Source: Escherichia coli (GTDB taxonomy: Bacteria; Pseudomonadota; Gammaproteobacteria; Enterobacterales; Enterobacteriaceae). Taken from it: DNA of 64,000 nucleotides. The stretch lies in assembly GCF_024223415.1 (NCBI RefSeq), contig NZ_CP100500.1, one strand, 5' to 3'. A model generated the notes under the pieces. It saw only the letters and a program-made list of their open reading frames with translations. It was not told where the DNA came from and did no database searches. The position numbers were made by a program, and so were the translations under genes. This document shows, one piece after another, positions 19,495-61,132 of the stretch; within the stretch, counting starts at the first letter, position 1; each line of letters begins with the position of its first letter.

Positions 19495-21666
19495 ATGAGT
19501 CAAACCATAACCCAGGGCCGTTTACGCATTGACGCCAATTTTAAACGTTTTGTGGATGACGAAGTTTTACCGGGAACAGGGCTGGACGCTGCGGCGTTCT
19601 GGCGCAATTTTGATGAGATCGTTCACGATCTGGCACCAGAAAATCGTCAGTTGCTGGCAGAACGCGATCGCATTCAGGCGGCGCTTGATGAGTGGCATCG
19701 CAGCAATCCGGGGCCGGTAAAAGATAAAGCGGCCTATAAATCTTTCCTGCGTGAACTGGGCTACCTGGTGCCGCAACCGGAGCGCGTGACGGTGGAAACC
19801 ACGGGCATTGACAGCGAAATCACCAGTCAGGCGGGGCCACAGCTGGTGGTTCCGGCAATGAACGCCCGCTACGCGCTGAACGCGGCGAACGCTCGCTGGG
19901 GCTCACTGTACGATGCGTTATACGGCAGCGACATCATCCCGCAGGAAGGGGCGATGGTCAGCGGCTACGATCCGCAACGCGGTGAGCAGGTTATCGCCTG
20001 GGTTCGGCGTTTCCTCGATGAATCTCTACCGCTGGAAAACGGCAGCTATCAGGATGTGGTGGCGTTTAAGGTGGTCGATAAACAATTACGCATCCAGTTG
20101 AAAAATGGTAAAGAAACCACGTTACGTACCCCGGCGCAGTTTGTCGGTTACCGTGGCGATGCCGCTGCGCCGACCTGCATTTTGCTGAAAAATAACGGCC
20201 TGCATATTGAACTGCAAATTGATGCCAACGGGCGGATTGGCAAAGACGATCCGGCGCACATCAACGATGTTATCGTCGAAGCGGCCATCAGTACCATTCT
20301 CGACTGCGAAGATTCGGTCGCGGCGGTTGATGCGGAAGATAAAATCCTGCTGTACCGCAATCTGCTGGGCCTGATGCAGGGGACTCTGCAAGAGAAAATG
20401 GAGAAAAACGGTCGACAAATCGTGCGTAAACTGAATGACGATCGTCATTACACCGCCGCCGATGGCTCTGAAATTTCTCTGCACGGACGCTCGCTGCTGT
20501 TTATCCGCAACGTGGGTCATTTGATGACCATTCCTGTGATTTGGGACAGCGAAGGCAATGAAATCCCGGAAGGCATTCTTGATGGCGTCATGACTGGCGC
20601 GATTGCCCTCTATGATTTAAAAGTGCAGAAAAACTCGCGCACTGGCAGCGTCTATATTGTGAAACCGAAAATGCACGGTCCGCAGGAAGTGGCGTTCGCC
20701 AACAAACTGTTTACCCGCATTGAGACAATGCTCGGTATGGCACCGAATACCCTGAAAATGGGCATTATGGATGAAGAACGTCGGACCTCGCTGAACTTGC
20801 GTAGCTGTATCGCTCAGGCGCGCAACCGCGTGGCGTTCATCAATACCGGTTTCCTCGACCGTACCGGCGATGAAATGCATTCGGTGATGGAAGCTGGCCC
20901 GATGCTGCGTAAAAATCAGATGAAATCGACGCCTTGGATCAAAGCCTACGAGCGTAATAACGTGCTTTCCGGTCTGTTCTGTGGGCTGCGCGGTAAAGCG
21001 CAAATTGGTAAAGGCATGTGGGCAATGCCGGACCTGATGGCAGACATGTACAGCCAGAAGGGCGACCAACTGCGTGCCGGGGCAAACACAGCCTGGGTTC
21101 CGTCACCAACCGCTGCTACGCTCCATGCGCTGCACTACCACCAAACCAACGTACAGAGCGTGCAAGCCAACATTGCCCAGACCGAGTTCAATGCTGAATT
21201 TGAACCGCTGCTGGACGATCTGCTGACTATTCCGGTTGCTGAAAACGCTAACTGGTCGGCGCAAGAGATCCAACAAGAGCTGGATAACAACGTGCAGGGG
21301 ATTCTGGGGTACGTGGTGCGCTGGGTGGAGCAGGGGATTGGTTGTTCAAAAGTGCCGGATATTCACAATGTGGCGCTGATGGAAGACCGCGCAACGCTGC
21401 GTATCTCCAGCCAGCATATCGCCAACTGGTTACGTCACGGTATTCTGACCAAAGAACAGGTGCAGGCGTCGCTGGAGAATATGGCGAAAGTGGTTGATCA
21501 GCAAAACGCTGGCGATCCGGCTTATCGTCCGATGGCGGGGAATTTCGCTAACTCGTGTGCTTTTAAAGCTGCCAGCGATTTGATCTTCCTCGGCGTGAAA
21601 CAGCCAAACGGTTATACCGAACCGTTATTACACGCCTGGCGTTTACGCGAAAAAGAAAGTCATTAA
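19495..21666 (+). CDS. glcB: Malate synthase G
   Basis: 723 aa; N-terminus [31 protein letters not shown] characteristic of malate synthase G. Confidence 0.9.
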
Positions 21667-21707: not shown

Positions 21708-22020
21708 TGATAGTAACTGCGGTAGTACATTTATCCCGGAAATAACCGGAGCGATTATCAGGGTTTAACAATATTAAATACCCGTAGCGCATTACTAGCG
21801 GGCCTAAAACAACAATATGGACATCTTAACGATACTCTGCGCCTGCGTGTGCGGAACAGAAACCCTTACCCGATATACTTGTTATGCCAGAGGTAGCAAT
21901 TGCGTTAGCGGCGTACTGTTGCTGTAAAGTATAACGCCTATATTTTACAGTTCAGTCCTCTTTTGCTTATTACAACCTTAAGTATATCAAGCATATAAAG
22001 ATAATAAGAGACTGAACAAT

Positions 22021-23711: not shown

Positions 23712-23748
23712 AGCCGGATGATCGTCAATATCATCCGGCTTCATTTAC
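23712..23748 (+). terminator. Rho-independent terminator after glcA
   Basis: Inverted repeat agccggatgat-cgtcaat-atcatccggct followed by a T-rich tract. Confidence 0.6.
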
Positions 23749-27100: not shown

Positions 27101-28747
27101 CTGGGCTTTAAAACGTTCACCGAGTTCCTGAACTGCTACGCCAATGATGCTTATGCAGGCGGCACCAAGTGTTCTGCAGATCTCAAAAAATCGCTGGTCG
27201 ATAACAAGATGATCTACGGTGAAAGTAGTGGCAAAGCGGGCATGATGAACCCGAGCTATCCGCTCAACTATATGGAAAAACCGCTGACGCGCCTGATGCT
27301 GGGGCGTTCCTGGTGGGATCTGAACATCAAAGTTGATGTCGAGAAGTATCCGGGAGCGGTATCGGCTGAAGGTGAGAAGGTTACTGAAAGCATCAGCCTG
27401 TACTCGAATCCGACCAAATGGTTTGCGGGTAACATGCAATCAACCGGCCTGTGGGCTCCGGCTCAGAAAGAGGTCACCATTAAGTCCAATGCGAACGTTC
27501 CTGTGACCGTCACCGTGGCGCTGGCTGACGACCTGACCGGACGTGAGAAGCATGAAGTTGCGCTGAACCGTCCGCCAAGAGTGACTAAAACGTACTCTCT
27601 GGACGCTAGCGGTACGGTGAAGTTCAAGGTGCCTTACGGTGGCCTGATTTATATCAAGGGCAATAGCTCTACCAATGAATCTGCCAGCTTCACCTTTACT
27701 GGCGTGGTAAAAGCACCGTTCTATAAAGACGGCGCATGGAAAAACGATCTGAACTCACCGGCTCCGCTGGGTGAGCTGGAATCAGACGCTTTCGTCTATA
27801 CCACACCGAAGAAGAACCTGAATGCCAGCAATTACACTGGCGGACTGGAGCAATTCGCTAACGATCTGGACACCTTTGCCAGCTCGATGAATGACTTCTA
27901 CGGTCGTAATGAAACGAGCGGTAAGCACCGGATGTTTACCTATAAAGCATTGACGGGACATAAACATCGTTTCACAAACGATGTGCAGATCTCCATCGGT
28001 GATGCGCACTCGGGTTATCCGGTAATGAACAGCAGCTTCTCGACGAACAGCACCACGCTGCCGACGACGCCGCTGAACGACTGGTTGATCTGGCACGAAG
28101 TAGGGCACAACGCCGCAGAAACGCCGCTGACTGTTCCAGGCGCGACCGAAGTGGCGAACAACGTGCTGGCGCTGTACATGCAGGATCGCTATCTCGGCAA
28201 GATGAACCGTGTCGCTGACGATATTACCGTCGCACCGGAATATCTGGAGGAGAGCAACGGTCAGGCATGGGCGCGTGGCGGTGCGGGTGATCGTCTGCTG
28301 ATGTACGCACAACTGAAGGAATGGGCAGAGAAAAACTTTGATATCAAGAAATGGTATCCAGAAGGCTCTCTGCCAGCGTTCTACAGCGATCGTGAAGGGA
28401 TGAAAGGCTGGAACCTGTTCCAGTTGATGCACCGTAAAGCGCGCGGCGATGATGTTGGCGACAAGACCTTTGGTGGCAAGAATTACTGTGCCGAATCCAA
28501 CGGTAACGCTGCGGACACGCTGATGCTGTGTGCCTCCTGGGTCGCTCAGACGGACCTTTCCGCATTCTTTAAGAAATGGAATCCGGGCGCGAATGCTTAC
28601 CAGCTGCCGGGGGTGAGCGAGATGAACTTCGAGGGCGGCGTGAGCCAGTCGGCTTACAACACGCTCGCGGCGCTTAATCTGCCGAAACCGCAGCAAGGGC
28701 CGGAAAATATTAATCAGGTTACCGAGCATAAGATGTCAGCCGAGTAA
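24188..28747 (+). CDS. sslE: SslE/YghJ lipoprotein, M60-like zinc metalloprotease (mucinase), T2SS substrate
   Basis: ATG at 24188 (MNKKFKYKK); lipobox LLAGC; Pro/Thr-rich PEPTPEP linker; HExxH zinc motif WLIWHEVGHNAAE near C-terminal domain; upstream of pppA-yghG-gsp. Confidence 0.85.
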   Translation: MNKKFKYKKSLLAAILSATLLAGCDGGGSGSSSDTPPVDSGTGSLPEVKPDPTPNPEPTPEPTPDPEPTPEPTPDPEPTPEPEPEPVPTKTGYLTLGGSQRVTGATCNGESSDGFTFKPGEDVTCVAGNTTIATFNTQSEAARSLRAVEKVSFSLEDAQELAASDNKKSNAVSLVTSSNSCPADTEQVCLTFSSVIESKRFDSLYKQIDLAPEEFKKLVNEEVENNAATDKAPSTHTSPVVPVTTPGTKPDLNASFVSANAEQFYQYQPTEIILSEGRLVDSQGYGVAGVNYYTNSGRGVTGENGEFSFSWGETISFGIDTFELGSVRGNKSTIALTELGDEVRGANIDQLIHRYSTTRQNNTRVVPDDVRKVFAEYPNVINEIINLSLSNGATLDEGEQVVNLPNEFIEQFNTGQAKEIDTAICAKTDGCNEARWFSLTTRNVNDGQIQGVINKLWGVDEDYKSVTKFHVFHDSTNFYGSTGNARGQAVVNISNAAFPILMARNDKNYWLAFGEKRAWDKNELAYITEAPSLVEPENVTRDTATFNLPFISLGQVGEGKLMVIANPHYNSILRCPNGYSWNGGVNKDGQCTLSGDSDDMKHFMQNVLRYLSDDKWTPDAKASMTVGTNLDTVYFKRHGQVTGNSAEFGFHPDFAGISVEHLSSYGDLDPQEMPLLILNGFEYVTQVGNDPYAIPLRADTSKPKLTQQDVTDLIAYMNKGGAVLIMENVMSNLKEESASGFVRLLDAAGLSMALNKSVVNNDPQGYPNRVRQQRATGIWVYERYPAVDGALPYTIDSKTGEVKWKYQVENKPDDKPKLEVASWQEEVEGKQVTRYAFIDEAEFKTKESLEAAKAKIFEKFPGLQECKDSTYHYEINCLEYRPGTKVPVTGGMYVPQYTQLNLSADTAKAMVQAADLGTNIQRLYQHELYFRTNGRKGERLSSVDLERLYQNMSVWLWNKIEYRYENDKDDELGFKTFTEFLNCYANDAYAGGTKCSADLKKSLVDNKMIYGESSGKAGMMNPSYPLNYMEKPLTRLMLGRSWWDLNIKVDVEKYPGAVSAEGEKVTESISLYSNPTKWFAGNMQSTGLWAPAQKEVTIKSNANVPVTVTVALADDLTGREKHEVALNRPPRVTKTYSLDASGTVKFKVPYGGLIYIKGNSSTNESASFTFTGVVKAPFYKDGAWKNDLNSPAPLGELESDAFVYTTPKKNLNASNYTGGLEQFANDLDTFASSMNDFYGRNETSGKHRMFTYKALTGHKHRFTNDVQISIGDAHSGYPVMNSSFSTNSTTLPTTPLNDWLIWHEVGHNAAETPLTVPGATEVANNVLALYMQDRYLGKMNRVADDITVAPEYLEESNGQAWARGGAGDRLLMYAQLKEWAEKNFDIKKWYPEGSLPAFYSDREGMKGWNLFQLMHRKARGDDVGDKTFGGKNYCAESNGNAADTLMLCASWVAQTDLSAFFKKWNPGANAYQLPGVSEMNFEGGVSQSAYNTLAALNLPKPQQGPENINQVTEHKMSAE

Positions 28748-28751
28748 GCCT

Positions 28752-29190
28752 GTATGCCGGATAAGGCGCTCGCGCCGCATCCGGCATGAAATAAGGCGCA
28801 CCGGGTCAACACATATGCCCGATGCGCAAGCTTATCGGGCCTACAGAGAGGGAAAGCTGCGTTTATTTGCGTTGGCAGACACCTGTAGGCCGGATAAGGC
28901 GTTCACGCCGCATCCGGCATGAAATAAGGCGCACCGGGTCAACACATATGCCCGATGCGCAAGCTTATCGGGCCTACAGAGAGGGAAAGCTGCGTTTATT
29001 TGCGTTGGCAGACACCTGTAGGCCGGATAAGGCGCTCGCGCCGCATCCGGCATGATATAAGGCGTATCGGGTTAACACATATGCCCGATGCGCCATCTTA
29101 TCGGGTCTTCAGGGAAAGCCGCGATTACTTGCGTTGGCAGATACCTGTAGGCCGGATAAGGCGTTTTACGCCGCATCCGGCAAGTTACAA
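28752..29190. repeat. REP/BIME cluster: four REP palindromes with ~120-140 bp tandem repeat units
   Basis: Repeated gccggataaggcg...cgccgcatccggca palindromes and near-identical ~125 bp units; these create spurious duplicated ORF N-termini (28822 and 28955 ORFs share identical first ~30 aa). Confidence 0.8.
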
Positions 29191-29206
29191 CAAACAACCT
29201 TTAACC

Positions 29207-30016
29207 ATGCTTTTTGATGTTTTTCAGCAATACCCTGCGGCGATGCCCATCCTGGCAACCGTCGGAGGATTAATCATCGGTAGTTTTTTGAATGTGGTGA
29301 TTTGGCGTTACCCCATCATGCTGCGCCAACAAATGGCGGAGTTTCATGGTGAAATGCCGAGTGCGCAGTCAAAAATAAGCCTTGCGCTACCGCGTTCGCA
29401 CTGCCCACATTGTCAGCAGACCATCCGGATACGTGACAATATTCCGCTGCTCTCCTGGCTGATGCTCAAAGGGCGCTGCCGTGATTGTCAGGCGAAAATC
29501 AGCAAGCGTTATCCGCTGGTGGAGTTATTGACGGCACTCGCTTTTTTGCTGGCGAGCCTGGTGTGGCCGGAAAGTGGATGGGCGCTGGCGGTGATGATAT
29601 TATCCGCCTGGCTGATTGCCGCGAGCATCATCGACCTCGATCACCAATGGCTGCCCGATGTTTTTACTCAGGGCGTATTGTGGACGGGACTAATTGCGGC
29701 ATGGGCGCAGCAGAGCCCGCTCACGCTACAAGATGCAGTCACCGGCGTCCTGGTGGGGTTTATCACTTTTTACTCTCTGCGCTGGATAGCCGGAATAGTT
29801 CTGCGTAAAGAAGCATTAGGCATGGGCGATGTATTATTGTTCGCCGCTTTAGGTAGTTGGGTGGGACCGTTATCACTGCCCAATGTTGCTTTAATCGCCT
29901 CATGCTGCGGCCTGATATATGCCGTTATTACAAAAAGAGGATCAACCACACTGCCTTTTGGACCGTGTTTAAGTCTGGGCGGTATAGCAACACTTTATCT
30001 ACAGGCATTGTTTTAA
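29207..30016 (+). CDS. pppA: Prepilin peptidase (type 4 prepilin-like leader peptidase/N-methyltransferase)
   Basis: 269 aa from ATG at 29207 ([10 protein letters not shown]); Cys-rich CPHCQ...CRDCQ zinc motif and polytopic peptidase domain; upstream ORF-track extension is repeat-derived. Confidence 0.85.
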
Positions 30017-42554: not shown

Positions 42555-44786
42555 CTAGTTCTCTACCATCAACCGGGCAAGCTTGGCAAAAATCGAACAC
42601 TTGCTGCTTTCACCGCTCCTGAGCATATCCAGGGTAAAGCTATTGAGATAAACGCCAGTTAACGGGTGGCTAAATACATCTACGGCTTTGCCTTGGGCAT
42701 CCCATATCAGCAGATTTTCCACCAGGTTAGGCCGTGCAATAGTAGGATTTGTAGGCTGGGCATCGCTTACCAGAACAAATACACCATTCTCATGCGGTTG
42801 CAGATAAATATGGTGATGCTTCATCTTTTGCGCTTTGGTCAGCGAGTCGTATTTCGAGCGGCCAGGTGATATCAGATAGGGCAGTACGTTTTGATCCGGT
42901 TTTGCAGAGCGGGTGATGGCGTACCCGTTAAATTTATCCCCTTTACGCTCTGCCAGAGTTTTTTCTTGTTCCTGATAAGCGTATGAATCGACGATATTAA
43001 ATTGCGCCGGGCCAATCAGGCGCGGTACGCGGGAGCTGTTGTAGGTGGTAAGCAGGACATCTGCTGTGTGGTCGTAGAGATAGAAGCTTTTGTCGAATAA
43101 TTTCTTTAATCGTCCCAGAGAGGGGGGATCAACAGACAGATAGTCTAATTTACCTTCAGCGATCCCGGTATCAACCACCCTAAGTTGGCCGTGTTCTATT
43201 TTTAGTTCGACATATCCAAGCAGGGGGAGATAGCTTTTCGTTTTGCGTACTGCATAGGCGGTATAGTGCCCGTCCGCCAAATCTGGTAGTGGGATGTGAT
43301 GCTGATTGAGTAAGCTCTCTTTGAACCATAGCTCGGTTTTTGTTCGGCGAACCTTACTGTTAAGTAAGGTAACTGCTGACTTGAGACGACTGTGAGGCTT
43401 CGTAAGATCGATTTCGTATTGAGTAGGGTTGCTTGTCAATTGTTCATTAATAAAATCAATCGCATCCAACAACTTGTGATCAATATTCATACCCTGTAAG
43501 ACTACGGGCAGAGGTTGCTGATTTAGCCACCCTTGCAAACGATCTAGTTTAAGCTGGGTATAAGTATCCCAATTGAGTTCGGGTTGTTTTCGGGCGTCGG
43601 CAAAGGCCGCATAGAAATCATTGTACTCAACAGATTCATTATCTTGCTGGCGGATGCTGTTGCTCCGCTCTTCATCTACTGCATTGAGTACCAGAATAGA
43701 TGTACTGGCAGGCAGCTCAGAAAAGCCGGTTTGCTGAGAATGTTTAAGCGACGCCAGAGGCCAGAGTTGATACCCGGGGAACTGGATGGCTAATGTGTCA
43801 AAGAAATAAGCTTCTTGCGTGGCGCTAAATTCGACGCCGTTATTAACCACCAACAGCGTATTAGTCAGTTGTTGATCGAGGTCGGTAGCGAACTGATTGA
43901 CCTCGTGGGTGGCCTGAAATGCGATAGGCTGATGCGGGATCTCTAGTTCACTGAGCCGCTCGCAGGCGGCATTCATGACCACGTTATAGGTATAGGCCTG
44001 GCATTCACCATAGCCGCTGCGCTCACGAAAAAAGTCCAGTTTGCTATCCCGGGCATCGAGTTTGCGCCGGGCTTTGAGCCGACGATTATCGATGTTAAAC
44101 CACACGCAGGTATCGTCCAGAGAGAGATGCAATTCATCCTCCGGTTCGACCAGAAATTTTCGTTTGTGCAGGGTAAAGGCGAGTTCGTTATATTCTGATG
44201 CATAAATGTCGAGTTCGAATGCCTCCATCACTCCAGTGCCGCTTTTCTGCGTGACGGGCTGACTCAGGCGAGCGTTGAGATAGAACGTAGAGTTGAAGTA
44301 GGTTGGCGGTACCGAAAAGCGCTCGCTGGCTTGTTCCAGCATTACCATTTTCAAATGCAGACTGAACAATCCCTGAATCAGGCGAGATAAATCATAATTT
44401 TCAGCTGTGAGTCGCTGGCAAAGCGTTTCAATGCGTTCTGCCAAAGTCCGATGCGCTAGGCTGTTCGGTGCAGCAGCAGGCGCCAGGAAAAAAAAGACGT
44501 GATGGTAATTGGGTAAGCAATGCAGCTCATATTTTACTTCCTGTCCGGCCTCAAGCCCAAGCTTCTGCCGCACGCAAGTTTTTACCTCCTGATGAATTCG
44601 CGCATAGTAATCAGCGGATTTTTCTTTTCGCTCTTTAGTAAAGTGCTGAACCATAAAGTCTATCGTATAGATATTAGATACCGGGGCCAATAGACGCTGG
44701 ATTGTTGTCAGCTGATCTTCTTCAAGCTTGATCAAATTGGTACGGGCAATCGGAGTATCCGTCAGCTCATTCAGATTAGGGATCAT
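42555..44786 (-). CDS. Hypothetical 743-aa protein, last gene of the five-gene island operon
   Basis: Intact long ORF; start overlaps stop of the upstream 1583-aa gene (4-nt overlap); no motif I can assign. Confidence 0.6.
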   Translation of the reverse strand: MIPNLNELTDTPIARTNLIKLEEDQLTTIQRLLAPVSNIYTIDFMVQHFTKERKEKSADYYARIHQEVKTCVRQKLGLEAGQEVKYELHCLPNYHHVFFFLAPAAAPNSLAHRTLAERIETLCQRLTAENYDLSRLIQGLFSLHLKMVMLEQASERFSVPPTYFNSTFYLNARLSQPVTQKSGTGVMEAFELDIYASEYNELAFTLHKRKFLVEPEDELHLSLDDTCVWFNIDNRRLKARRKLDARDSKLDFFRERSGYGECQAYTYNVVMNAACERLSELEIPHQPIAFQATHEVNQFATDLDQQLTNTLLVVNNGVEFSATQEAYFFDTLAIQFPGYQLWPLASLKHSQQTGFSELPASTSILVLNAVDEERSNSIRQQDNESVEYNDFYAAFADARKQPELNWDTYTQLKLDRLQGWLNQQPLPVVLQGMNIDHKLLDAIDFINEQLTSNPTQYEIDLTKPHSRLKSAVTLLNSKVRRTKTELWFKESLLNQHHIPLPDLADGHYTAYAVRKTKSYLPLLGYVELKIEHGQLRVVDTGIAEGKLDYLSVDPPSLGRLKKLFDKSFYLYDHTADVLLTTYNSSRVPRLIGPAQFNIVDSYAYQEQEKTLAERKGDKFNGYAITRSAKPDQNVLPYLISPGRSKYDSLTKAQKMKHHHIYLQPHENGVFVLVSDAQPTNPTIARPNLVENLLIWDAQGKAVDVFSHPLTGVYLNSFTLDMLRSGESSKCSIFAKLARLMVEN

Positions 44787-47700
44787 GATACTTTTCCTTT
44801 AGTCGGCAACTTTTCTACACCCAGCAGGGTTAGTAACATTGGGTTTATATCCAATGTCATGCGCAGTTTCGAGTTTTCCTGAGCGCGTCCGCTCTCTCGA
44901 TTTTTGGGCTGATAATACTGGTAGTCAGTTTGCAACAGGTTGAGGTAGTGGATCGTGTGATCCACATTATCCTGCCACATCAGATTATTAGGGTTCTGGC
45001 TGTAGGCGACGTTCAGATAGATAAATCGAATACGTTCATAACGGCCTGCCAGCGCCGTCTGGAGCTGTTTCTGCCCCTCAGTATCCGCCTTTTGGCTGGC
45101 GATATTACGGATCTGGCGAATCTTGTTGTCGCTTTTCTCAAGCGTTTCTTCTGCCCGCGTCAAATCGTCCAACTGTGTCGCCCAGCGCTTAACGTCGATG
45201 CAGAGCAGGTCGTCGCCCACTTCAATAAAGCGGTCAAAAAACTCATAGACCAGCGGTTCAAGGCGTTCAAACACCTGCTGGTCGGAGAGTGGGGTAACAC
45301 CATAACTTTTTAGCACTTTATCGAAGAGATATTCACCGACATTGCCTTTGAGCAACGGAACTAGCCTGGGGTTGGGTACCCATTTTTTGAATGCCTTTTC
45401 CTGGATGTTGTCACATTCACGAATCAACTCGCCGACCAGGTTGCCGGGGGTAAAATCGACATCGTTTCTATACTGCGGAAAGAGGGTGAGCTCTGGCCGG
45501 TACTCTCTTGCGCCGCCAGCGAAATCCGACAGGGCGGAATAATCTCTGTGGGCAAGTCCATCCGGGCCGCGTTTGTGGCAAAGTAAAATCGTTTGATTCC
45601 CTTGCTGACGATCGATAAACAGAGCGTCGTGAACAGATTGCATTTGTCGATTGGCGGTATACAAGGGATTAGCCTGGAGTTTTGCCAGCCAGCGCTGGGG
45701 ATCGGTAAAGGAGTCAGGATCGCGGAATAAATTACATATCTCGAGATAATCGAGATTGCCAGCGCGTACCTTATTAATCCAGTCGGTTTTAAGGACACGT
45801 TTGTGAATTTCATCGATGCGGCGACCATTCGCGACGATAGCTTGCTCAAACGTCAGTCGCTGTTCCGCATTATTGAATGACTGGCCCTGACTCAGCTTTT
45901 CGCACTCCTCCATGAGTCGGTGGTTAAGCAAAGACATACTTTCTGATACCACCTCGTTACCGCTATCTTCACTAAGAGCGGCGAACTGAAATGCAACATT
46001 ACGGAACACATCGCGGGGTAAAAAGATTTCTGTTTTCAATAGAGTGTCGCGACGCTCGACTCGCCCTACGGCCTGCACGACGACTTTGAATAAGCTCATA
46101 TCATGTTCGGCCATTAACAGGCGATAGTTTTCGCCGTGGGCGAAATTAACGTTGAAATCGGCCAGCTTGTGGACGGTAATATCGTCATCGGCGTAGTGTT
46201 TAAGCACGGTAACGTAGTTAGGTAATGTATTGAGGTTGCCGCTGTTGTCCTTTACTTCGCTGTAAAACGAGGAGTTGATGAGCACTAAGCGCTCAAAATC
46301 GACATCCAGACGTGGTGCATTGATATCATTAATATCGCCGTCATGGTATTTAACAAAGTAGTTGAGGCCGGTACCCGCACTTTTATAACTGCTCATAAAT
46401 ACCAGTACGGTATTGCTGTTCTGGAGATAGGTTTCTTGCCTGATATCTTCGACATTAGCCAGTGGTGAATCGAAAAAGACCAAATGGACGGTGTGACGCC
46501 CTTTGAATGGGGTAAAGGTCAGGATCTGGTCATGTTTCTTACCGTTATCCGTTTTTTCATCGCACCGGGAGTGCATACCGTACTGCTGACGCCAGGTTGT
46601 CTGGTGCGTGCGCCAGGCGCTGATAAAGGCCCGCTTAAACGTCCCTGAAAGTGACAGAATCAGGCTGTTTTTACCCTCCCAGGCGGCAAGCAGTAACGCT
46701 TCCAGTTCCCGCTGGCACTGACGCCGTTTATAGGTATTTTTCAGGTCGTATTCCAGCGGTTTCTTCAGCGCGTCGAAAAAGTTGTCATACGTCCTGCGAT
46801 AGATTTCACAATTTTGGTAGATATCGGTCAATTTTAACTGCTTATCATCGAACACCCTGAAGTCTACGTTGCGGATACTGGCCCTCAACCCGCGTAATGC
46901 CTTAAGCGTATCGATATCTGCCTTTTCGCGTTCAACGACCCGGTAGCCAAGGTCGCGGCTATAGTGCGCCAGGAAGTGACGATTGAAGTTACCGTTTTTG
47001 GTGTGGCTAAAACCGCTGGTGGCGCTAAGCCCAATTACTTTATTGTGCGTGCCGGTTAATAAACGCAGCAGCATGGCTTCAGGCAACTCTTGTACCAGAT
47101 CCATCTCGAACGCCAGAATAATTGTGCGCTCGGCTCCCCTGTTCACGTAATTGAGTTCAGCTATCGGCGTCATCGTGAATACGGTTTTGGGTTGCAGGTA
47201 AGTGTAGAAATGATCAATCAACAAGTTTTTATCGGTGGTGCGATCGAAGATATGTCGCACCACGCCGGCTACGTTATTGGCTGCGTCAACAAACTGGCCC
47301 AAAGGCGTATTCTGGCTGCTGGAGTTGTCCTGGCCACCATTCTTTACCCAGCGCTTAAAGTGCCGGTTGGTGATTTCAGAACAGGCGGCGAGGATGACGG
47401 AGACCAACTGGAACAGATCGTGCAGAGTGGGGTTGGTGTCATTGGCATCATTTTCGACTTCGTAATACAGTTCGGTGCGCGTTATGTCGCCTTCGCTGTT
47501 GCGCATGCGAATGCGTTTCAGCCCTTCTTCATTGACGTACATTTTGGGGTTAAAGCTGAATACGTTGCGGGTGATTGAGATGATGCGTTCGGCGGCGTCG
47601 CCGTTGACTTCAAATGCCCCTAACTGGTCACGAAACATCTCCAGGATCGATCCCAGCCTTGTACCGGGGGATAGTTCGCACTTTTCCGCCAGTAAATTGC

Positions 47701-49534
47701 GCAGAGTAGTGATGAATTTGACCATCTCTTGCTCAAAGGTCGTTTGCGCTTCTTTGGGCTTGTTTCGGCGTTCTAAGCTGAGTACCGCGTTGTGAATACG
47801 TCCTGCGACGGAAATAACGTGCGCCAGGTTATTTTCCTGTGTGATTAGCTTTACATGGCATGTTTCTTCAAGGCGAGTGTAGGCTTCATGTAGTTCATCA
47901 ATGATCACCGTAAAACGAATATTTTTCTGGCGAAAAGGACAATCTGGATTGCGTCTGAAGTGTTCGTCGCGAAGATAGGTAACCTGCCCGGTATGACCGG
48001 CTGCCGCAACGGTGCTAATCTGTGGATCTTTGGGAGTCAGCTTACCGCCAATCAGCAAGTCGAAACCTACGGACTCAAAACGCACACCTTCGCCTCGCTG
48101 ACGAGGCGCCAGTCGGTAAGTTGATGTGTCGAACTTATTCGTGGTCATTAATAGCACTGACGGGCGGTACTGGCAAACTTCGAAAGGCAATACCTGTTTG
48201 ATAAGCTCGAAATAGACTTCGTGTACGCTTATCTTAGGTTCAAGCTTTCCTGGTTTTCGTGCTGTCTCCGCGTTTTGCATTCGCTCTTGCCGCGCCTGGA
48301 GCCCGCGACGAATGTACTCTTTAATGGAAGCTTTTTCACTATCTGGTCCAAATAGTAATTTACAGGCTGACTCAATCGTATTGCGGATACTGTGACGGCA
48401 GTTTTTTAGCTGTTCTTCGAGAATTTCTCTTTCGTAGTTGGTATCCTGAGAACCGTATGTTGTCAGCTTTTTTAACTGCTCTTCACAGCGATCAATTTGT
48501 AAGACATGATAATTGAGCGAACGAATAGCGCCGCCGATATATTTGCTGCCTTTCGCCCCTTCGTACCACTGAATATAGCTGTCGCGGTTTTTCAGACCAG
48601 AGGCCCAGTCCATAAAGTCGAGGTCGGCAACATCCTTACGGGAGAGAACGCAAATGAACTCGCCGCTAGCGGCCAGAATTTTCTCTTTCTGACTGCTGTC
48701 CAGGTCGATTTGTGATTTTTGCGGTGACATGAATAGCAGGTTGGTAAAGCCACCTTCAGGAAACAGATCGTCTGACTTTTGGGTTTTGGCGAAGCGCTCC
48801 AGATATTCGACATACCCTTGGATCACGCCATAGCTTTTGCCGAACCCCGTGCCGTCGGAACTGAAGATGACCTCAGCGCCATCACGTTCATGCACGTGGT
48901 AAAGTTGAGAGACTTGGGCGCGACAGGCGTTAATCTCTTTAATCAGCGTTATGTCAGGAATTTGCCTAGAGATGAGATCTTGCAGATTATTATTGATATT
49001 TTTCTCTCCAACACGCTCACACTTGCGGTAACTATTGATGGTTATTTGGCCGCTGTCGATCAGAATCTTTTCCACCTGTATGGGGGCAAGATGCAAGGCT
49101 GTCGCGATTTCATTGATAGTATTGGACAGTGGTTCGTGTGGATTGCTAATCGTGAAGTGGTTTAGTGCTGCCGCAACGGTATCTGGATGCAATGCTTTTC
49201 TGAGGGTGGGAAAGGTGAGGCTGTAATCGTATAGCGCCAAATCATTGCTTATCAGGCAGCGAAACAGTTGTTTAGTGGGATCGCCACCAGGACGGCTGGC
49301 AAATCCCAAGATTTTTGCCTGTTCGAGGCGATAAAGCAATGCTGCGGCATCGCGGTCAGGTGAGTCAAATGCATCGTGGAGCTGCTGGCTAAATGGCATT
49401 GTGGCATTCAGCCGGTTATGGCTGACCAGCGCGGAAAAGAGCTGACGCACCAAGGTTAGCAGCTTACAATCTTCCTCTATAGTCCAGCTTTTTCTCATTC
49501 TTCTTCCCCTTAATATAAATGCCCCTGCAACCAC
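44783..49534 (-). CDS. Very large (1583 aa) SF2-helicase-like P-loop NTPase
   Basis: Walker A-like DGTGFGKS, DExH-like Walker B FTVIIDELHEA, SAT-like motif III LSATSGF, motif VI-like QAVGRVERR, spread over large insertions; overlaps upstream helicase gene by ~25 nt. Confidence 0.65.
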   Translation of the reverse strand: MVAGAFILRGRRMRKSWTIEEDCKLLTLVRQLFSALVSHNRLNATMPFSQQLHDAFDSPDRDAAALLYRLEQAKILGFASRPGGDPTKQLFRCLISNDLALYDYSLTFPTLRKALHPDTVAAALNHFTISNPHEPLSNTINEIATALHLAPIQVEKILIDSGQITINSYRKCERVGEKNINNNLQDLISRQIPDITLIKEINACRAQVSQLYHVHERDGAEVIFSSDGTGFGKSYGVIQGYVEYLERFAKTQKSDDLFPEGGFTNLLFMSPQKSQIDLDSSQKEKILAASGEFICVLSRKDVADLDFMDWASGLKNRDSYIQWYEGAKGSKYIGGAIRSLNYHVLQIDRCEEQLKKLTTYGSQDTNYEREILEEQLKNCRHSIRNTIESACKLLFGPDSEKASIKEYIRRGLQARQERMQNAETARKPGKLEPKISVHEVYFELIKQVLPFEVCQYRPSVLLMTTNKFDTSTYRLAPRQRGEGVRFESVGFDLLIGGKLTPKDPQISTVAAAGHTGQVTYLRDEHFRRNPDCPFRQKNIRFTVIIDELHEAYTRLEETCHVKLITQENNLAHVISVAGRIHNAVLSLERRNKPKEAQTTFEQEMVKFITTLRNLLAEKCELSPGTRLGSILEMFRDQLGAFEVNGDAAERIISITRNVFSFNPKMYVNEEGLKRIRMRNSEGDITRTELYYEVENDANDTNPTLHDLFQLVSVILAACSEITNRHFKRWVKNGGQDNSSSQNTPLGQFVDAANNVAGVVRHIFDRTTDKNLLIDHFYTYLQPKTVFTMTPIAELNYVNRGAERTIILAFEMDLVQELPEAMLLRLLTGTHNKVIGLSATSGFSHTKNGNFNRHFLAHYSRDLGYRVVEREKADIDTLKALRGLRASIRNVDFRVFDDKQLKLTDIYQNCEIYRRTYDNFFDALKKPLEYDLKNTYKRRQCQRELEALLLAAWEGKNSLILSLSGTFKRAFISAWRTHQTTWRQQYGMHSRCDEKTDNGKKHDQILTFTPFKGRHTVHLVFFDSPLANVEDIRQETYLQNSNTVLVFMSSYKSAGTGLNYFVKYHDGDINDINAPRLDVDFERLVLINSSFYSEVKDNSGNLNTLPNYVTVLKHYADDDITVHKLADFNVNFAHGENYRLLMAEHDMSLFKVVVQAVGRVERRDTLLKTEIFLPRDVFRNVAFQFAALSEDSGNEVVSESMSLLNHRLMEECEKLSQGQSFNNAEQRLTFEQAIVANGRRIDEIHKRVLKTDWINKVRAGNLDYLEICNLFRDPDSFTDPQRWLAKLQANPLYTANRQMQSVHDALFIDRQQGNQTILLCHKRGPDGLAHRDYSALSDFAGGAREYRPELTLFPQYRNDVDFTPGNLVGELIRECDNIQEKAFKKWVPNPRLVPLLKGNVGEYLFDKVLKSYGVTPLSDQQVFERLEPLVYEFFDRFIEVGDDLLCIDVKRWATQLDDLTRAEETLEKSDNKIRQIRNIASQKADTEGQKQLQTALAGRYERIRFIYLNVAYSQNPNNLMWQDNVDHTIHYLNLLQTDYQYYQPKNRESGRAQENSKLRMTLDINPMLLTLLGVEKLPTKGKVS

Positions 49535-51708
49535 TCCGTCACGCGTTCAATATTAAAAGCACGTAATCCATATTCCTGCGTCAGCAACGTCTCGGGTAAA
49601 TACTCATCATATTTTTCGAGGCACTTTTCAACGATGCTTTCGGCAAGACGGGATTCGTAAGGTAGCCCTTCCTGAAGTGCGCTGAATAACGCTTGTTTAA
49701 CCTCCGAGACCGTAGTTTTTTCTACTTCAACCACACCAGCAAATGAGCCCGCCTTGAAACCGCGTTGGATAAGTAATGCCGACAACGTGTTTACGGTTTG
49801 ATCGCCTAGCCAGGGAAGAATGTAGACATGCTGTCTCTGCTGAATAAAACATTCCGAAGCCAGATTATTGTTGCGAAAACAGTGCAGCCCTTCATCAAAC
49901 AGGTTTTTGGCCGTGGTATCGGCAAAATCGGCCTTGCGATTGCCAACGGTGATGCGGTAGTCGCCTTCCCGATAAATAGTGAGCATTTCTTGGCGGACGA
50001 CATCATGAATGGACATCCCTTGTCCGCCAAATAACGGCGGCTGCCCACCCTTTGTCGCCTCGACATAAATAACTTTTTTATCACTATCGATATCGGTTAC
50101 CTTCCAGCGTCGACCGCCGAAAATAATGTGTTGATCAGGCATCAGTGGGGAATCAACGGGAATGGAGCCCAGTGTTTTGCTCCCCGCCACAATGCGAAAC
50201 TCTTCCGGCGTGCTGAACACGGCGTAGAAGGTGTATTGATTTACCTGACGTTCGCCCTCGACGCCCAGAACCAGTTCGCCGCTTGAGAGCTGGGTCAGAA
50301 ACTGGTGCTCCCCCATATGTTTCAATAACGTTTTGAAGTCATAGATCCGGACTTTCTGAAATGGCCCTTGCAGGCATAGCTGTGACCAGATCTGATCCGC
50401 ACGCACGCCTCCCCACTGCGCCACGATCGCCAGGATCTGATGGAACAGGGTGGAATAGTGCATCTGCCGGGTATCAGCTGGCTCAAACCATTTGTTGCCG
50501 ATAAGTAAGCGGATCATGGCCAGCGACTGAACAAGCTGAAGCCTGAGCTGGTCGACAATGCCTGATGTTGGCGTCAGTTCATGTTCGGCAATCAGCATTC
50601 TCAATACGGCAGGCGAGTCGCGCCGACCGGAGCGTCCCATTCGCTGACGCAGGCTGGCTACGGAATGGGGGGCGGTAACTTGCACAACGGAGCTGACTTT
50701 ACCGATGTCGATGCCAAGCTCTAACGTCATCGTACAGATGGCGGTGGTGGGTAAGTTGCCTTGTTGAAGCCTCTGTTCCAGCGTTTCACGCAGATCTCTG
50801 GACAGAGATCCGTGATGGGGAAAGAACTCATTGGGAACGATGCTCGCTTCACTGAGATCGCTAAGCGTGGCGGCAATGCTTTCGGTCCGTTTGCGACTAT
50901 TAGCGAACACCAGATGGGAATCACCACGACAGAGGCGAAAGATATCATGGCAGATTTGCGTCTCTGCCGACGGTGGAGATTGCTGGCCCGAGGTGGTCAG
51001 CGGTTCCAGATAACCTTTCACCTGTACTTTTAGCGTGGCGTGAGTCTGACTGTCGGTAATAATGTCACAGGGCAGACGTTGATTTGGCCGCAGAGATAAC
51101 GGCACCTGTTCCAGTTCCCCCAGCGTTGCGCTGAGTGCGACTCGGGGGACTGGATTGTTGATTCTTCCCAGCAGGTGATCGACTCGATTTAACAGAGAGA
51201 GAAGCTGCATACCCCGCTCAGAACCGATGAAAGCATGGAATTCATCAATGGCGATATATGCCAGTGGCGCGAAAGCCTGCTTTAACCATCCCGCATTGCG
51301 GATCAGCATCGCTTCCAGCGATTCCGGGGTGATAAGCAAAATACCGGCAGGATTCTTCTTTGCTTTCAGCTTTTTGCTCTGCGCAACATCACCATGCCAG
51401 GGCGTGACCGGCATCTCCAACGCATCACCGAGGTTTTCCAGCCTTCGATACTGATCGTTAATCAGGGCCTTAAGCGGGCTGATGTATAAAATGCCAAAGC
51501 CGCCCTGAATATCCGCAATGGCAGAACAGGCGGGCAGGAAAAACGCTTCTGTTTTACCTGCGGCAGTCGCGGCGCTGATCAGAACATCCCGATCGCCCGC
51601 TAATATCGGTGAAACGGATTTTTTTTGCAGTTCCCTGAGATCGGCCCATCCCTGCCGGTATATCCACTTCTGTATCCGTGGATCCAGCCGCTGGTATTCG
51701 TTCATCAT
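49510..51708 (-). CDS. DEAD/DEAH-box superfamily 2 helicase, Lhr-like
   Basis: 732 aa; Q-motif region, Walker A AATAAGKTEA, Walker B IAIDEFH, SAT-like LSATL, motif VI QRMGRSGRR. Confidence 0.75.
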   Translation of the reverse strand: MMNEYQRLDPRIQKWIYRQGWADLRELQKKSVSPILAGDRDVLISAATAAGKTEAFFLPACSAIADIQGGFGILYISPLKALINDQYRRLENLGDALEMPVTPWHGDVAQSKKLKAKKNPAGILLITPESLEAMLIRNAGWLKQAFAPLAYIAIDEFHAFIGSERGMQLLSLLNRVDHLLGRINNPVPRVALSATLGELEQVPLSLRPNQRLPCDIITDSQTHATLKVQVKGYLEPLTTSGQQSPPSAETQICHDIFRLCRGDSHLVFANSRKRTESIAATLSDLSEASIVPNEFFPHHGSLSRDLRETLEQRLQQGNLPTTAICTMTLELGIDIGKVSSVVQVTAPHSVASLRQRMGRSGRRDSPAVLRMLIAEHELTPTSGIVDQLRLQLVQSLAMIRLLIGNKWFEPADTRQMHYSTLFHQILAIVAQWGGVRADQIWSQLCLQGPFQKVRIYDFKTLLKHMGEHQFLTQLSSGELVLGVEGERQVNQYTFYAVFSTPEEFRIVAGSKTLGSIPVDSPLMPDQHIIFGGRRWKVTDIDSDKKVIYVEATKGGQPPLFGGQGMSIHDVVRQEMLTIYREGDYRITVGNRKADFADTTAKNLFDEGLHCFRNNNLASECFIQQRQHVYILPWLGDQTVNTLSALLIQRGFKAGSFAGVVEVEKTTVSEVKQALFSALQEGLPYESRLAESIVEKCLEKYDEYLPETLLTQEYGLRAFNIERVTEWLQGHLY

Positions 51709-53021
51709 AATCTGAAGTCGGCCAGACCGTCCTCATCGGCATCTTCTGCCGATGTTATTTCATCCATATCACTGGGTTTTTCTTCCGCGATCGCGACACC
51801 GGCGATTAACTGTGACCACTGAATGGATGGGTTTTGTTCCAGCACGGCCAGCATATCCAGGAAGGCTTTAATCGTGTTTCGTGGCGTACGGAAATAGGCA
51901 TCGCCAATAGTGTTGCTACAGTGGCGTAAAAATGCCGTCAGAGCATCATCAGGAACCAGATACTTATCCGCATCGCCGCCGGAATAAACGTGACGAAGGT
52001 TTTTCAACAGAATATAGAGTTCTTCCGGCGTCAGGCTGGCTAAGTGCAGGGAAGGGGACGAATAATCAATGACACCAGCCCGCTGAGCGAAGCTATTTTC
52101 CGCCAGTCGGGACTGGAGCGCTTCGTAGCTGTACAACCCCTTGCGCGGATCGAACAGGAATTCTGGCGTACCGCCAAGTAAAAAACCGATATATTCAGCC
52201 GTCCCTTGCAGGCAGTCATTCAGAATACGCAGTATCTGTTCATAGTTGGCAACGCGGGCCTGAGTGTTACTGAGCTTATACAGATTGACCATCTCATCCA
52301 GATTCACCAGCAGACCCGCGTATCCGGCCTGACGGACAAACAGGCTCATCAGCTTTAGCGAATCGTAGAAAGAGGCATCAGAAATAATGGTGCGCACACC
52401 CAGATCGTTACGGGCGTCGGTTTTCGTGGTGTATTCACCTCTTAGCCAGCGGATGGCATTTGATTTCAATGTCTCATTATCCTGCTCGTGGCCCTGCCAG
52501 TAACATTCAATGACTTTGGCGAAATCGTAACCGCCAACCATATCAGACAGGGCGGCGAGCTTTTGGTGAATAATCGTCGGAACTGACACATTTGTACTTT
52601 CTGCTTCTTTTCTGGCTTCCGTGATAAAGCGCTCAACCACGCTTAATAATGCGTTTCCATCCGGCTTATTTCGGGTGGATAGATTTTTCATTAGCTCGGA
52701 GTAGAGGTTACGCGCCTGCCCACCCGTCGCGTGGATGCGCCTGTCCGGGGATAAATCGGCGCTGATTGTCACCAGCTTTTTTTCTAGCGCAATTGAGCGC
52801 ACAACGCTTAAAAAGAATGTCTTACCTGAGCCATATTCCCCAATAATCAGCCGGAGTCCTGCGCCGCCATCAGCGATACGCTCAATATCCTGATACAGCG
52901 CTTTTATTTCGTTGACCCGGCCAACCTGAATGTGCTGAATACCAATTTTAGGCGTAACACCTGACTTCAGTGACTGAATAATAGCGTCTCTTTCTTTGAG
53001 ACGAATACGAATGCCAGACAT
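51705..53021 (-). CDS. P-loop ATPase (438 aa), BrxD/DUF2791-like
   Basis: Walker A LIIGEYGSGKTF and Walker B-like LLVNLDEM; start 4 nt downstream of the TerB-like gene stop, stop overlaps helicase start. Confidence 0.65.
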   Translation of the reverse strand: MSGIRIRLKERDAIIQSLKSGVTPKIGIQHIQVGRVNEIKALYQDIERIADGGAGLRLIIGEYGSGKTFFLSVVRSIALEKKLVTISADLSPDRRIHATGGQARNLYSELMKNLSTRNKPDGNALLSVVERFITEARKEAESTNVSVPTIIHQKLAALSDMVGGYDFAKVIECYWQGHEQDNETLKSNAIRWLRGEYTTKTDARNDLGVRTIISDASFYDSLKLMSLFVRQAGYAGLLVNLDEMVNLYKLSNTQARVANYEQILRILNDCLQGTAEYIGFLLGGTPEFLFDPRKGLYSYEALQSRLAENSFAQRAGVIDYSSPSLHLASLTPEELYILLKNLRHVYSGGDADKYLVPDDALTAFLRHCSNTIGDAYFRTPRNTIKAFLDMLAVLEQNPSIQWSQLIAGVAIAEEKPSDMDEITSAEDADEDGLADFRL

Positions 53022-53024
53022 AAA

Positions 53025-59614: not shown

Positions 59615-61132
59615 TTAACAACAGAAGAGGACCATCACCCCGGGATTAACCGTTAGCAGTTCGGCAAAGAGCGCATGTGCTGGCACACGTGCTCCCAGCG
59701 ACCAAAACGGAAACGCAGATACTGGTGAACCAGCACAGTTTTCTGTTTCATACCGGGCTCCTTTCTTTCGACGCCGACAAGCTGTCGGCGAGCCCCGTAC
59801 ACCTCGTACGAGCGTGACTATCGTGTAGAGGCTAAGGATCCCGGGGGATGGCTTCCGCTATCGTAGGCGATTTCATTTGATGATTCAATCTTTGCTTTGG
59901 ATAACAATTAATTGAGATGGTCGTATTTTAGTATTAGCACTGTATGTCTTAGCTATAGTGCTGCTGAAATGACCAATTCGGGAACCGTGATGGTTTCCTG
60001 GAAACTCTCTTGCTTATTTTACGATGCTGGCCGATTATCACAAAACGTTGCTTAAACGCTGATTGGATATGGTGCTTTGTGGCAGTCATTCGCTTGTCTG
60101 ACGTTGCCATGGCTTACATTTGATGTAGCCAATGTAGAAGCCGCTTGGTGAATTGTTCTATGACATGGTCTACTACTTCGTTGTGGAAAATGAAGATGCG
60201 GTACCGGGTATGTACCATTGATGGTGAGAGGCTTATCGACGAATGGACCGTACGATATTGCTTGGCTGGAAAGGTGTGTGAAGCATTGTAGATTTACATT
60301 CACAAAATCGCGAGAAAATCTACAAACAACTCTATTTCCAGAAAAATGAGTTTCCCCTTTCTGCGCCAGAAATAAAGGCGTAATCTCCCTCCTGCACTAT
60401 GTTGTCGTGGACAACTCCCTTGCTTCATGGTCTGCAAGAAGCCCCTGATTTATCAGGATGACCAGCCCTTTCTACCGGTACGACCTCCGCAATACCGGAA
60501 CGCGAAAGCGTTTGAGGCTAAGAGTACATACACATGAACGGCTCCATCGTCATCGCTTAACGGCAACAGCCTTCACCGGCTGAACGGCCTCTCTTTGCCG
60601 GAATTTTCCTGGCCCACTTATACCCTGCTGATAACCAGCGCCTTTTTACATGACGGGCTGCGGCCTGCATTGCCGAAGGCTTTGCTGCCGCGTGACCGTC
60701 ATCCTGCACCAGAGTGTTAATTTTCAGACCCTGCGCCAGACCAGGGCGTCAGTCGCTCACGCGCAGTGAGAGACTGACGCCCGCAGAAATTTCCATCTGC
60801 ACCAGTCATATCAACTGTTCCAGCCACAGGCGAGCTTCTGACGTCGCTTTTCAGCATTTATCTCAACCATTCATTCACAAAAGGAGAACATGAGCCAGTA
60901 CCGGAGGAGGACCACCAGGACGGTCCGGGGGATGACCAGCTCACGCTGGCGGCTGCTCTGAGAGCACAACCGATACCCCGCAAAACCTCAACAGCCGTCG
61001 CCCCGGCGCTCAGGTACTGCTCGCAGCCCCGACAAAAATCAGGGGCTATCGGCCTACGCGCCGGGGAAAGCTGTATCCGTTGTTTGTTGTGGTTTTGTGA
61101 AAATCAGGAGCGAGAGAAGAGGAAAACGTAAA

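Follow-up and report, generated by a model that had tools for sequence, protein, structure and literature searches.

The sslE-pppA locus and its intergenic array

The DNA analyzed here is a 64,000-nt stretch of Escherichia coli contig NZ_CP100500.1 (RefSeq assembly GCF_024223415.1), referred to below as the window, and gene coordinates were mapped onto it from the RefSeq record of the E. coli SCU-316 chromosome (NZ_CP054371.1), which is 100% identical to the window. The annotated gene order at the locus is glcA, sslE, pppA, gspS-beta, gspC, D, E, F and onward. The first gene of the sslE-pppA-gspS-gspC..M operon, sslE, encodes the lipoprotein metalloprotease SslE/YghJ, a mucinase that is the secreted cargo. 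Between sslE and pppA lies an intergenic region of 459 nt (28748-29206), and a tandem repeat array is located entirely inside it and is extragenic. The features that delimit this region are as follows.

28745-28747, + strand: sslE stop codon TAA, from the RefSeq annotation of NZ_CP054371.1 and the sequence; the coding sequence ends at 28747
28749-29182, + strand: tandem BIME array, from Tandem Repeats Finder, a repeat search and autocorrelation at lag 133
29207-30016, + strand: pppA, prepilin peptidase of 269 aa, with its annotated ATG start at 29207

Two further features were observed upstream of the array. At 23713-23739, 10 nt past the stop codon of glcA, lies a perfect hairpin with REP-like feet (GCCGGATGATCGTCAATATCATCCGGC) that departs from the canonical REP and could be the terminator of glcA. 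A 315-aa antisense ORF (27782-28729, − strand) falls wholly within sslE and is a mechanical ORF.

Tandem Repeats Finder reported a single array at 28749-29182 with a period of 133 nt and 3.3 copies (91% matches, score 705), and the repeat search recovered three 133-nt copies in register together with four copies of each REP half, spaced 133, 133 and 130 nt apart. Self-identity reaches 0.78 at a lag of 133, compared with 0.25 ± 0.03 at other lags, and the best value obtained at any lag from 100 to 169 in 1,000 shuffles was 0.37. An earlier reading of this DNA, made from the letters alone (the sequence-only reading), had placed tandem units of ~120-140 bp at 28752-29190 and had let its case depend on tandem periodicity; the periodicity is present well above the shuffle maximum, and both the coordinates and the unit size were accurate.

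Anatomy of the repeat unit

Each unit consists of a Y REP with a GTAG foot, a 28-nt linker, a z1-like inverted REP (iREP) with a CTAC foot and a 38-nt linker, in that order, and the series then repeats. The units and their palindromes are listed below; free energies refer to the RNA hairpins.

28749-28881, + strand: unit 1, 133 nt, made up of Y-REP, 28-nt linker, z1-like iREP and 38-nt linker
28882-29014, + strand: unit 2, 133 nt, 97.7% identical to unit 1 (3 substitutions), of the type duplicated or lost among strains
29015-29143, + strand: unit 3, 129 nt, of a diverged type (b), ~87% identical to units 1 and 2
29144-29206, + strand: terminal partial unit, consisting of a fourth Y-REP and then the A/C-rich pppA leader AAGTTACAACAAACAACCTTTAACC
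28752-28787 (stem 28756-28785), + strand: Y-REP 1, foot GTAT, dG −24 kcal/mol
28885-28920 (stem 28889-28918), + strand: Y-REP 2, foot GTAG, dG −20.9 kcal/mol
29018-29053 (stem 29022-29051), + strand: Y-REP 3, foot GTAG, dG −20.9 kcal/mol
29147-29183 (stem 29151-29181), + strand: Y-REP 4, foot GTAG, dG −21.7 kcal/mol
28817-28844 (stem 28817-28840), + strand: short z1-like iREP 1, GCCCGATGCGCAAGCTTATCGGGC plus the CTAC foot
28950-28977 (stem 28950-28973), + strand: short z1-like iREP 2, identical to iREP 1
29083-29110 (stem 29083-29106), + strand: short z1-like iREP 3, degenerate, GCCCGATGCGCCATCTTATCGGGT plus CTTC, dG −10.7 kcal/mol

The Y palindrome is 30 nt long (GCCGGATAAGGCG-NNNN-CGCCGCATCCGGC) and is preceded by GTAG, or by GTAT in copy 1, whose stem starts 8 nt past the sslE stop codon. 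In the Rfam naRNA4 consensus, the Y half is identical to Y-REP 2 at 32 of 33 positions, and this nearly base-for-base alignment, together with the 133-nt period, bears out the earlier identification of the region as tandem REP/BIME sequence. The count given with that identification, at least four REP palindromes, is right for the Y type and falls short for the array as a whole, which holds seven palindromic units (four Y and three z1-like). Unit 3 differs from its neighbors by a 4-nt deletion and by the degenerate foot of its iREP, where CTTC replaces CTAC.

Of the REP classes, z1 gives the best alignment to the short REP (26 of 31 columns with the narP-ccmH BIME-1 copy), compared with 27 of 36 columns for y and 25 of 39 for z2. 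Relative to z1, its stem carries a compensatory T>C/A>G pair that turns GCCTGAT/ATCAGGC into GCCCGAT/ATCGGGC. This z1-like variant occurs rarely (median, 2 places per genome), and in the CFT073 yggR-ruvX region such a short REP adjoins a Y REP; a query containing the Y-REP hit a median of at least 36 places per genome among the matches listed. The intact z1-like hairpin folds at −13.5 kcal/mol and the Y hairpins at −21 to −24 kcal/mol, and the RNA of the whole intergenic region folds at −213 kcal/mol (z = −8 relative to shuffled sequence).

An alternative hairpin, GGCGCACCGGG...CCCGATGCGC (28795-28830, with equivalents in units 2 and 3; dG −16.5 kcal/mol), competes with the z1-like REP and forms a perfect 12-bp stem in unit 3. 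Its left arm resembles the collapsed remnant of a third REP. Substitutions in this hairpin among alleles are one-sided only, with no compensatory pairs.

Assignment to the BIME classes

The REP is defined as an imperfect palindrome of 20 to 40 nt with a GTAG/CTAC foot. In the array, three of the four Y units have a GTAG foot and two of the three inverted units a CTAC foot; the units match the known consensus, are extragenic in position and belong to a sequence dispersed in high copy number, the z1-like variant alone being low-copy. REP and inverted REP alternate with linkers between them, as in a BIME. Three classes of BIME are distinguished (PMC3333891): BIME-1 consists of one y + z1 pair, whose L linker usually contains an IHF site; BIME-2 combines y and z2 through a short S linker and occurs in tandem copies; and atypical BIMEs are chimeric, with variable linkers, and occur in multiple tandem copies, conserved well inside one locus and different in number between strains.

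Like the BIME-1 at narP-ccmH, the array joins a y REP to a short z1-type REP across a long linker. BIME-1, however, is single-copy and has an L linker with an IHF site, whereas the array is multi-copy and without an IHF core. In the intergenic region, no match of at least 8/9 to the IHF core (WATCAANNNNTTR) was found, the best (7/9) lying outside the repeats; the narP-ccmH control has 8/9 matches on both strands. The 3.3 tandem copies and the absence of an IHF core rule out BIME-1. BIME-2, or naRNA4, was also considered and rejected: its tandem arrangement is shared, but the partner REP aligns poorly to z2 (25/39) and the linkers are 28 and 38 nt long. The naRNA4 model, a z2-Y unit, scored 38.2 bits in the array against a gathering score of 59.5, with the Y half alone aligning, and no other Rfam family matched within the array.

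The array is an atypical BIME and shows all of the listed features of that class. No palindromic repeat of the genome is commoner than REP/BIME, and the array is an ordinary instance of it. As in the atypical BIMEs of the Bachellier et al. classes (PMC3333891), its linkers are of neither the L nor the S type, it is a chimera of y and z1-type REPs, and it is present in multiple tandem copies at one locus in numbers that vary among strains. We see no difference in kind; the trait of its own is the rare z1-like partner with the compensatory C/G stem pair. The element class has long been known, and that its members generally vary in copy number between strains has been published; our literature search on sslE/yghJ and extragenic palindromes retrieved no description of REPs at this particular locus.

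Elsewhere in the window, the Rfam search gave further matches. A full-length C0719 RNA (21721-21942, − strand; 299 bits, 222/222 positions) lies between a 723-aa ORF (19495-21666) and glcA. isrN matched above its gathering score at 42025-42161 (+ strand, 72 bits), just ahead of a block of large − strand ORFs at 42555-55352 (743, 1583, 732, 438 and 775 aa), and EFASI RNA likewise matched above its gathering score at 60890-61023 (+ strand, 113 bits).

Repeat-derived open reading frames and the pppA start

Two open frames with ATG starts run through the array.

28822-29055, + strand: spurious ORF of 77 aa with an ATG start, an open frame through repeat units 1 to 3
28955-29206, + strand: spurious 84-codon N-terminal extension of pppA from an in-frame ATG in unit 2, within the 353-aa ORF 28955-30016

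The ORFs at 28822-29055 and 28955-30016 have identical first 33 residues, because both begin at the same ATG of successive units; as 133 is not a multiple of 3, the shared residues represent the repeat in two different relative frames. The sequence-only reading had pointed to this identity over roughly 30 residues and had called both frames spurious, and it was right on both counts. The products are arginine-rich translations of REPs, and a Pfam search with the 77-aa ORF and with the pppA extension gave no match. Neither is annotated by PGAP in any of 12 RefSeq genomes, where the gap is left empty and pppA starts at the equivalent of 29207 in all 12. The ATGs and frames of the ORFs are missing from the short alleles carried by most strains, so the pppA extension cannot exist there, and a test for coding signal by frame conservation across alleles went against coding. 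The annotated PppA of 269 aa has the N terminus typical of a prepilin peptidase.

Both ORFs are thus translation artefacts of the repeat and not genes, and the pppA start is at 29207. That the frames could instead yield real products, a small protein of 77 aa and a longer form of PppA from 28955, is scarcely credible: both are indeed open with ATG starts, but their residues derive from the repeat, are Pfam-negative, go unannotated in the 12 genomes and are lost in short alleles. For annotation, where the finding has its main value, this means that gene calls for the 77-aa ORF and the 353-aa "long PppA" are to be avoided. The leader before the pppA start (GTTACAACAAACAACCTTTAACCATG, 29186-29209) is A/C-rich and free of G; no Shine-Dalgarno sequence is recognizable in it, which suggests that the prepilin peptidase is translated weakly or by coupling.

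Copy-number polymorphism among E. coli strains

An exact census of copies by BLAST coverage is confounded, as repeat-derived pieces get joined. We therefore used a query made of the two flanking coding segments joined without any REP sequence and took the gap length from the matched span. Among 5,426 complete E. coli genomes, 3,432 have the locus by this flank query, and allele frequencies were determined from 56 evenly spaced records having both flanks. Most of these (38/56, 68%) have a gap of 129 to 164 nt that contains one intact REP and relics, and 15 (27%) have a gap of 194 to 197 nt, many of them being K-12 laboratory derivatives. A gap of 326 nt, corresponding to 2.3 copies, occurs in 2 of the 56 (~3.6%), and the 459-nt allele is the top row of the sample.

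The allele series comprises gaps of 129, 139, 147, 163, 197, 326, 459 and 592 nt. The K-12 allele of ~197 nt amounts to 1.3 copies, and those of 326, 459 and 592 nt amount to 2.3, 3.3 and 4.3 copies, respectively; the range among strains is 0.3 to 4.3. When records were ranked by similarity to the window, 23 with the 3.3-copy span came first and at least 37 with the 2.3-copy span ranked next, and a synthetic query of 7.3 copies recovered exactly one 4.3-copy record, strain 88COLEC, with a gap of 592 nt. The multi-copy state is therefore a minority allele of a polymorphic locus, a point that the sequence-only reading had overlooked.

The longer alleles are related by whole units. The 2.3-copy allele consists of a type-a unit, a type-b unit and the terminal REP; the 3.3- and 4.3-copy alleles contain one and two additional type-a units, respectively, and the exact 133-nt register is always kept. 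Strains XH990 (3.3 copies) and 88COLEC (4.3 copies) have identical SslE (WP_021557203.1) and PppA (WP_000895883.1) proteins, and SCU-316 (3.3 copies) and EC1515 (2.3 copies) have the same PppA (WP_000895861.1). Copy number thus changes faster than the flanking genes, and the existence of strain pairs with identical SslE and/or PppA proteins that differ by exactly one 133-nt unit points to very recent gain or loss.

We propose that the multi-copy state arose by whole-unit, in-register gain, which may have occurred through unequal recombination, replication slippage or TnpA-REP. In-register gain or loss of 133 nt fits unequal homologous exchange or slippage, with the TnpA-REP models (PMC3333891) as an alternative, and local amplification is general BIME behavior (Ton-Hoang et al. 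2012, PMC3333891). In the REPIN/RAYT system, inverted REP doublets are proposed to be mobilized or amplified by the domesticated Y1 transposase TnpA-REP (PMC3333891). The array resembles that system in having REP doublets in inverted orientation; it differs in that no tnpA-REP gene lies beside it, and unequal exchange or slippage could explain the gains equally well.

The short alleles represent decayed forms of the array, with deletions that fall between short direct repeats (e.g., ...GCGCATCGGG/CCTG...) and a terminal REP of which half is lost. In the K-12 C600 locus (1882-1945), the terminal Y REP has stem-breaking substitutions (GGACGGAT...ATCCAGC), and K-12 therefore has one intact Y REP at the locus. 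The one constant feature is the first Y REP, which is intact in 11 of the 12 alleles examined and nearly intact in the twelfth; the distance from the sslE stop codon to its stem is 8 nt in the same proportion of alleles (11/12) and 1 to 2 nt in the remaining one.

Transcription of the array and its probable role

According to a passage in PMC5012682 that cites Yang 2007, ETEC transcribes sslE and the 13 genes behind it from a promoter located upstream of sslE, and the same passage makes the promoter ahead of sslE/yghJ the main source of expression for all 14 genes. Tiling arrays of BL21(DE3) likewise found sslE, pppA, yghG and yghF to be co-transcribed with the gsp genes (PMC5435950). Given this published co-transcription, the array would be transcribed as an internal untranslated segment, and any termination in it would be partial at most. 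The earlier suggestion that the array separates sslE from the secretion genes did not survive in the sense of insulation, as the genes on either side are reported to be co-transcribed (PMC5012682, PMC5435950), in ETEC and BL21(DE3) strains that probably carry shorter alleles.

A scan for intrinsic terminators, taken as GC-rich hairpins with a U tract immediately behind them, found none on the + strand and two matches on the − strand, where 2.3 ± 1.5 are expected by chance. A scan for sigma-70-like sites over 28000-30000 found none on either strand, compared with 1.5 in shuffles. The RNA of the array contains 132 G and 124 C residues, and this slight excess of G makes it unlike a classical Rho-loading site.

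The sequence-only reading had suggested that the array could serve as a transcriptional attenuator or mRNA-stability element, a plausible idea that agrees with published findings on REPs generally and on REP325 especially. The closest parallel studied by experiment is REP325 (naRNA4, BIME-2) between yjdM and yjdN of K-12, which stabilizes the upstream yjdM mRNA and attenuates yjdN ~8- to 10-fold, partly through Rho (bioRxiv 10.64898/2026.03.23.713779). Across the genome, tandem genes with REPs between them are expressed with an upstream bias that has wide variance, and REP effects are context dependent and widely variable (bioRxiv 10.64898/2026.03.23.713779). REP325, too, is an intra-operon tandem array that starts just past the upstream stop codon, and transcription crosses it in the same Y-then-iREP orientation. 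The two arrays differ in build: REP325 has 5.8 copies of a 100-nt period with a z2 partner and linkers of 13 and 17 nt, whereas the sslE-pppA array has a 133-nt period, a z1-like partner and linkers of 28 and 38 nt.

The REPs at malE-malF and aceA-aceK offer a second parallel, being likewise located within operons between a highly expressed upstream gene and a weakly expressed downstream gene. Differential expression at these two loci is thought to be set by a barrier to 3' exonucleases and by premature termination. Neither is known as a large copy-number polymorphism with a 133-nt unit. A drop in expression along aceBAK has also been noted (PMC5435950).

On these parallels, the hairpins probably stabilize the sslE segment of the transcript and partly attenuate read-through; the anatomy, class, polymorphism and non-coding status of the array are shown directly, and each functional step in this proposal is one that we infer. 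By blocking 3'-to-5' exonucleases, the stable hairpins of the REPs (−21 to −24 kcal/mol each) would protect the upstream sslE segment, and the long, structured, untranslated stretch would cause partial termination, probably assisted by Rho. Protection and termination together would tilt expression in favor of the cargo at the expense of the secretion machinery, and a larger number of copies would plausibly strengthen both. Taken jointly, an atypical BIME in the untranslated sslE-pppA gap, a minority multi-copy allele, ORFs that are artefacts, and a stabilizing and attenuating mechanism make up the reading that we prefer, with a probability of roughly 0.6.

Several observations count against a strong or necessary function: the majority of strains with one REP, the lack of any + strand terminator or promoter signal, and the reported co-transcription. 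About two-thirds of the sampled genomes with the locus hold one intact REP and decayed relics, and ETEC lineages with such short alleles are among the strains reported to secrete SslE; the system can therefore work without a multi-copy array.

Alternative explanations

The majority of decayed alleles also bears on the best-surviving alternative, that the array is a neutral or selfish repeat whose copy number drifts, whether by slippage, TnpA-REP or unequal crossing-over, without real consequence for how sslE or gsp are expressed. Most genomes hold decayed relics with one intact REP, and in K-12 the terminal REP is stem-broken. The multi-copy alleles are rare (2.3 copies in ~3.6% of the sample, 3.3 copies in 23 records and 4.3 copies in one), copy number differs despite identical flanking proteins, as expected of a fast neutral process, and local BIME amplification is a general phenomenon (Ton-Hoang et al., PMC3333891). 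Against pure drift, the first Y REP has stayed intact in 11 of 12 alleles, and nearly so in the twelfth, despite heavy decay downstream of it, and intra-operon REPs act measurably where they have been tested (bioRxiv 10.64898/2026.03.23.713779). We consider neutrality a possibility to be taken seriously, if one that we would bet against.

The conserved position of the first Y REP also raises the option of an effect on translation. A REP close to a stop codon, within a limit of 15 nt, reportedly stalls ribosomes and leads to mRNA cleavage and tmRNA tagging. A passage in PMC4513850 gives the gist of this stalling mechanism, citing Liang, Rudd and Deutscher (Mol Cell 2015). If the same applied here, terminating ribosomes would stall at the first REP, and less SslE would be made; the stop-to-stem distances of 8 nt in 11 of 12 alleles and 1 to 2 nt in the other fall inside that 15-nt limit. 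Such an effect would need the first REP alone and leaves the tandem amplification unexplained. As a replacement for the stabilizer and attenuator explanation it appears unlikely; the two could coexist.

Action at the level of DNA seems to us improbable. The array could bind DNA gyrase, IHF or DNA polymerase I, or could serve as a topological insulator between the highly expressed cargo gene and the machinery genes; for BIMEs, binding of all three proteins and topological insulation have both been reported (PMC3333891). For IHF, however, the intergenic region offers no core at 8/9 or better, its best match (7/9) being outside the repeats, compared with 8/9 in the narP-ccmH control.

An internal promoter in the array that drives pppA-gsp independently of sslE was considered on account of the long gap, found nothing in its favor and is very improbable, given the absence of a sigma-70-like site on either strand of 28000-30000 and the assignment of expression in the literature mainly to the promoter upstream of sslE/yghJ.

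Implications for SslE secretion and REP biology

A more speculative reading goes further. The number of 133-nt units might act as a heritable, rapidly mutable rheostat of the ratio of SslE to its type II machinery, and possibly of the absolute amount of SslE through the stop-proximal REP; we regard this as a rather unlikely idea. If it is true, lineages with 0.3, 1.3, 2.3, 3.3 and 4.3 copies would vary in SslE secretion even with promoter and coding sequences unchanged. The products of the operon concerned are a mucinase that is a vaccine candidate and the secretion system dedicated to it. The strains also provide a natural allelic series, from 0.3 to 4.3 copies on near-identical backgrounds, in which dose effects of an intra-operon BIME could be tested, and the answer would refine, rather than overturn, the understanding of REP function.
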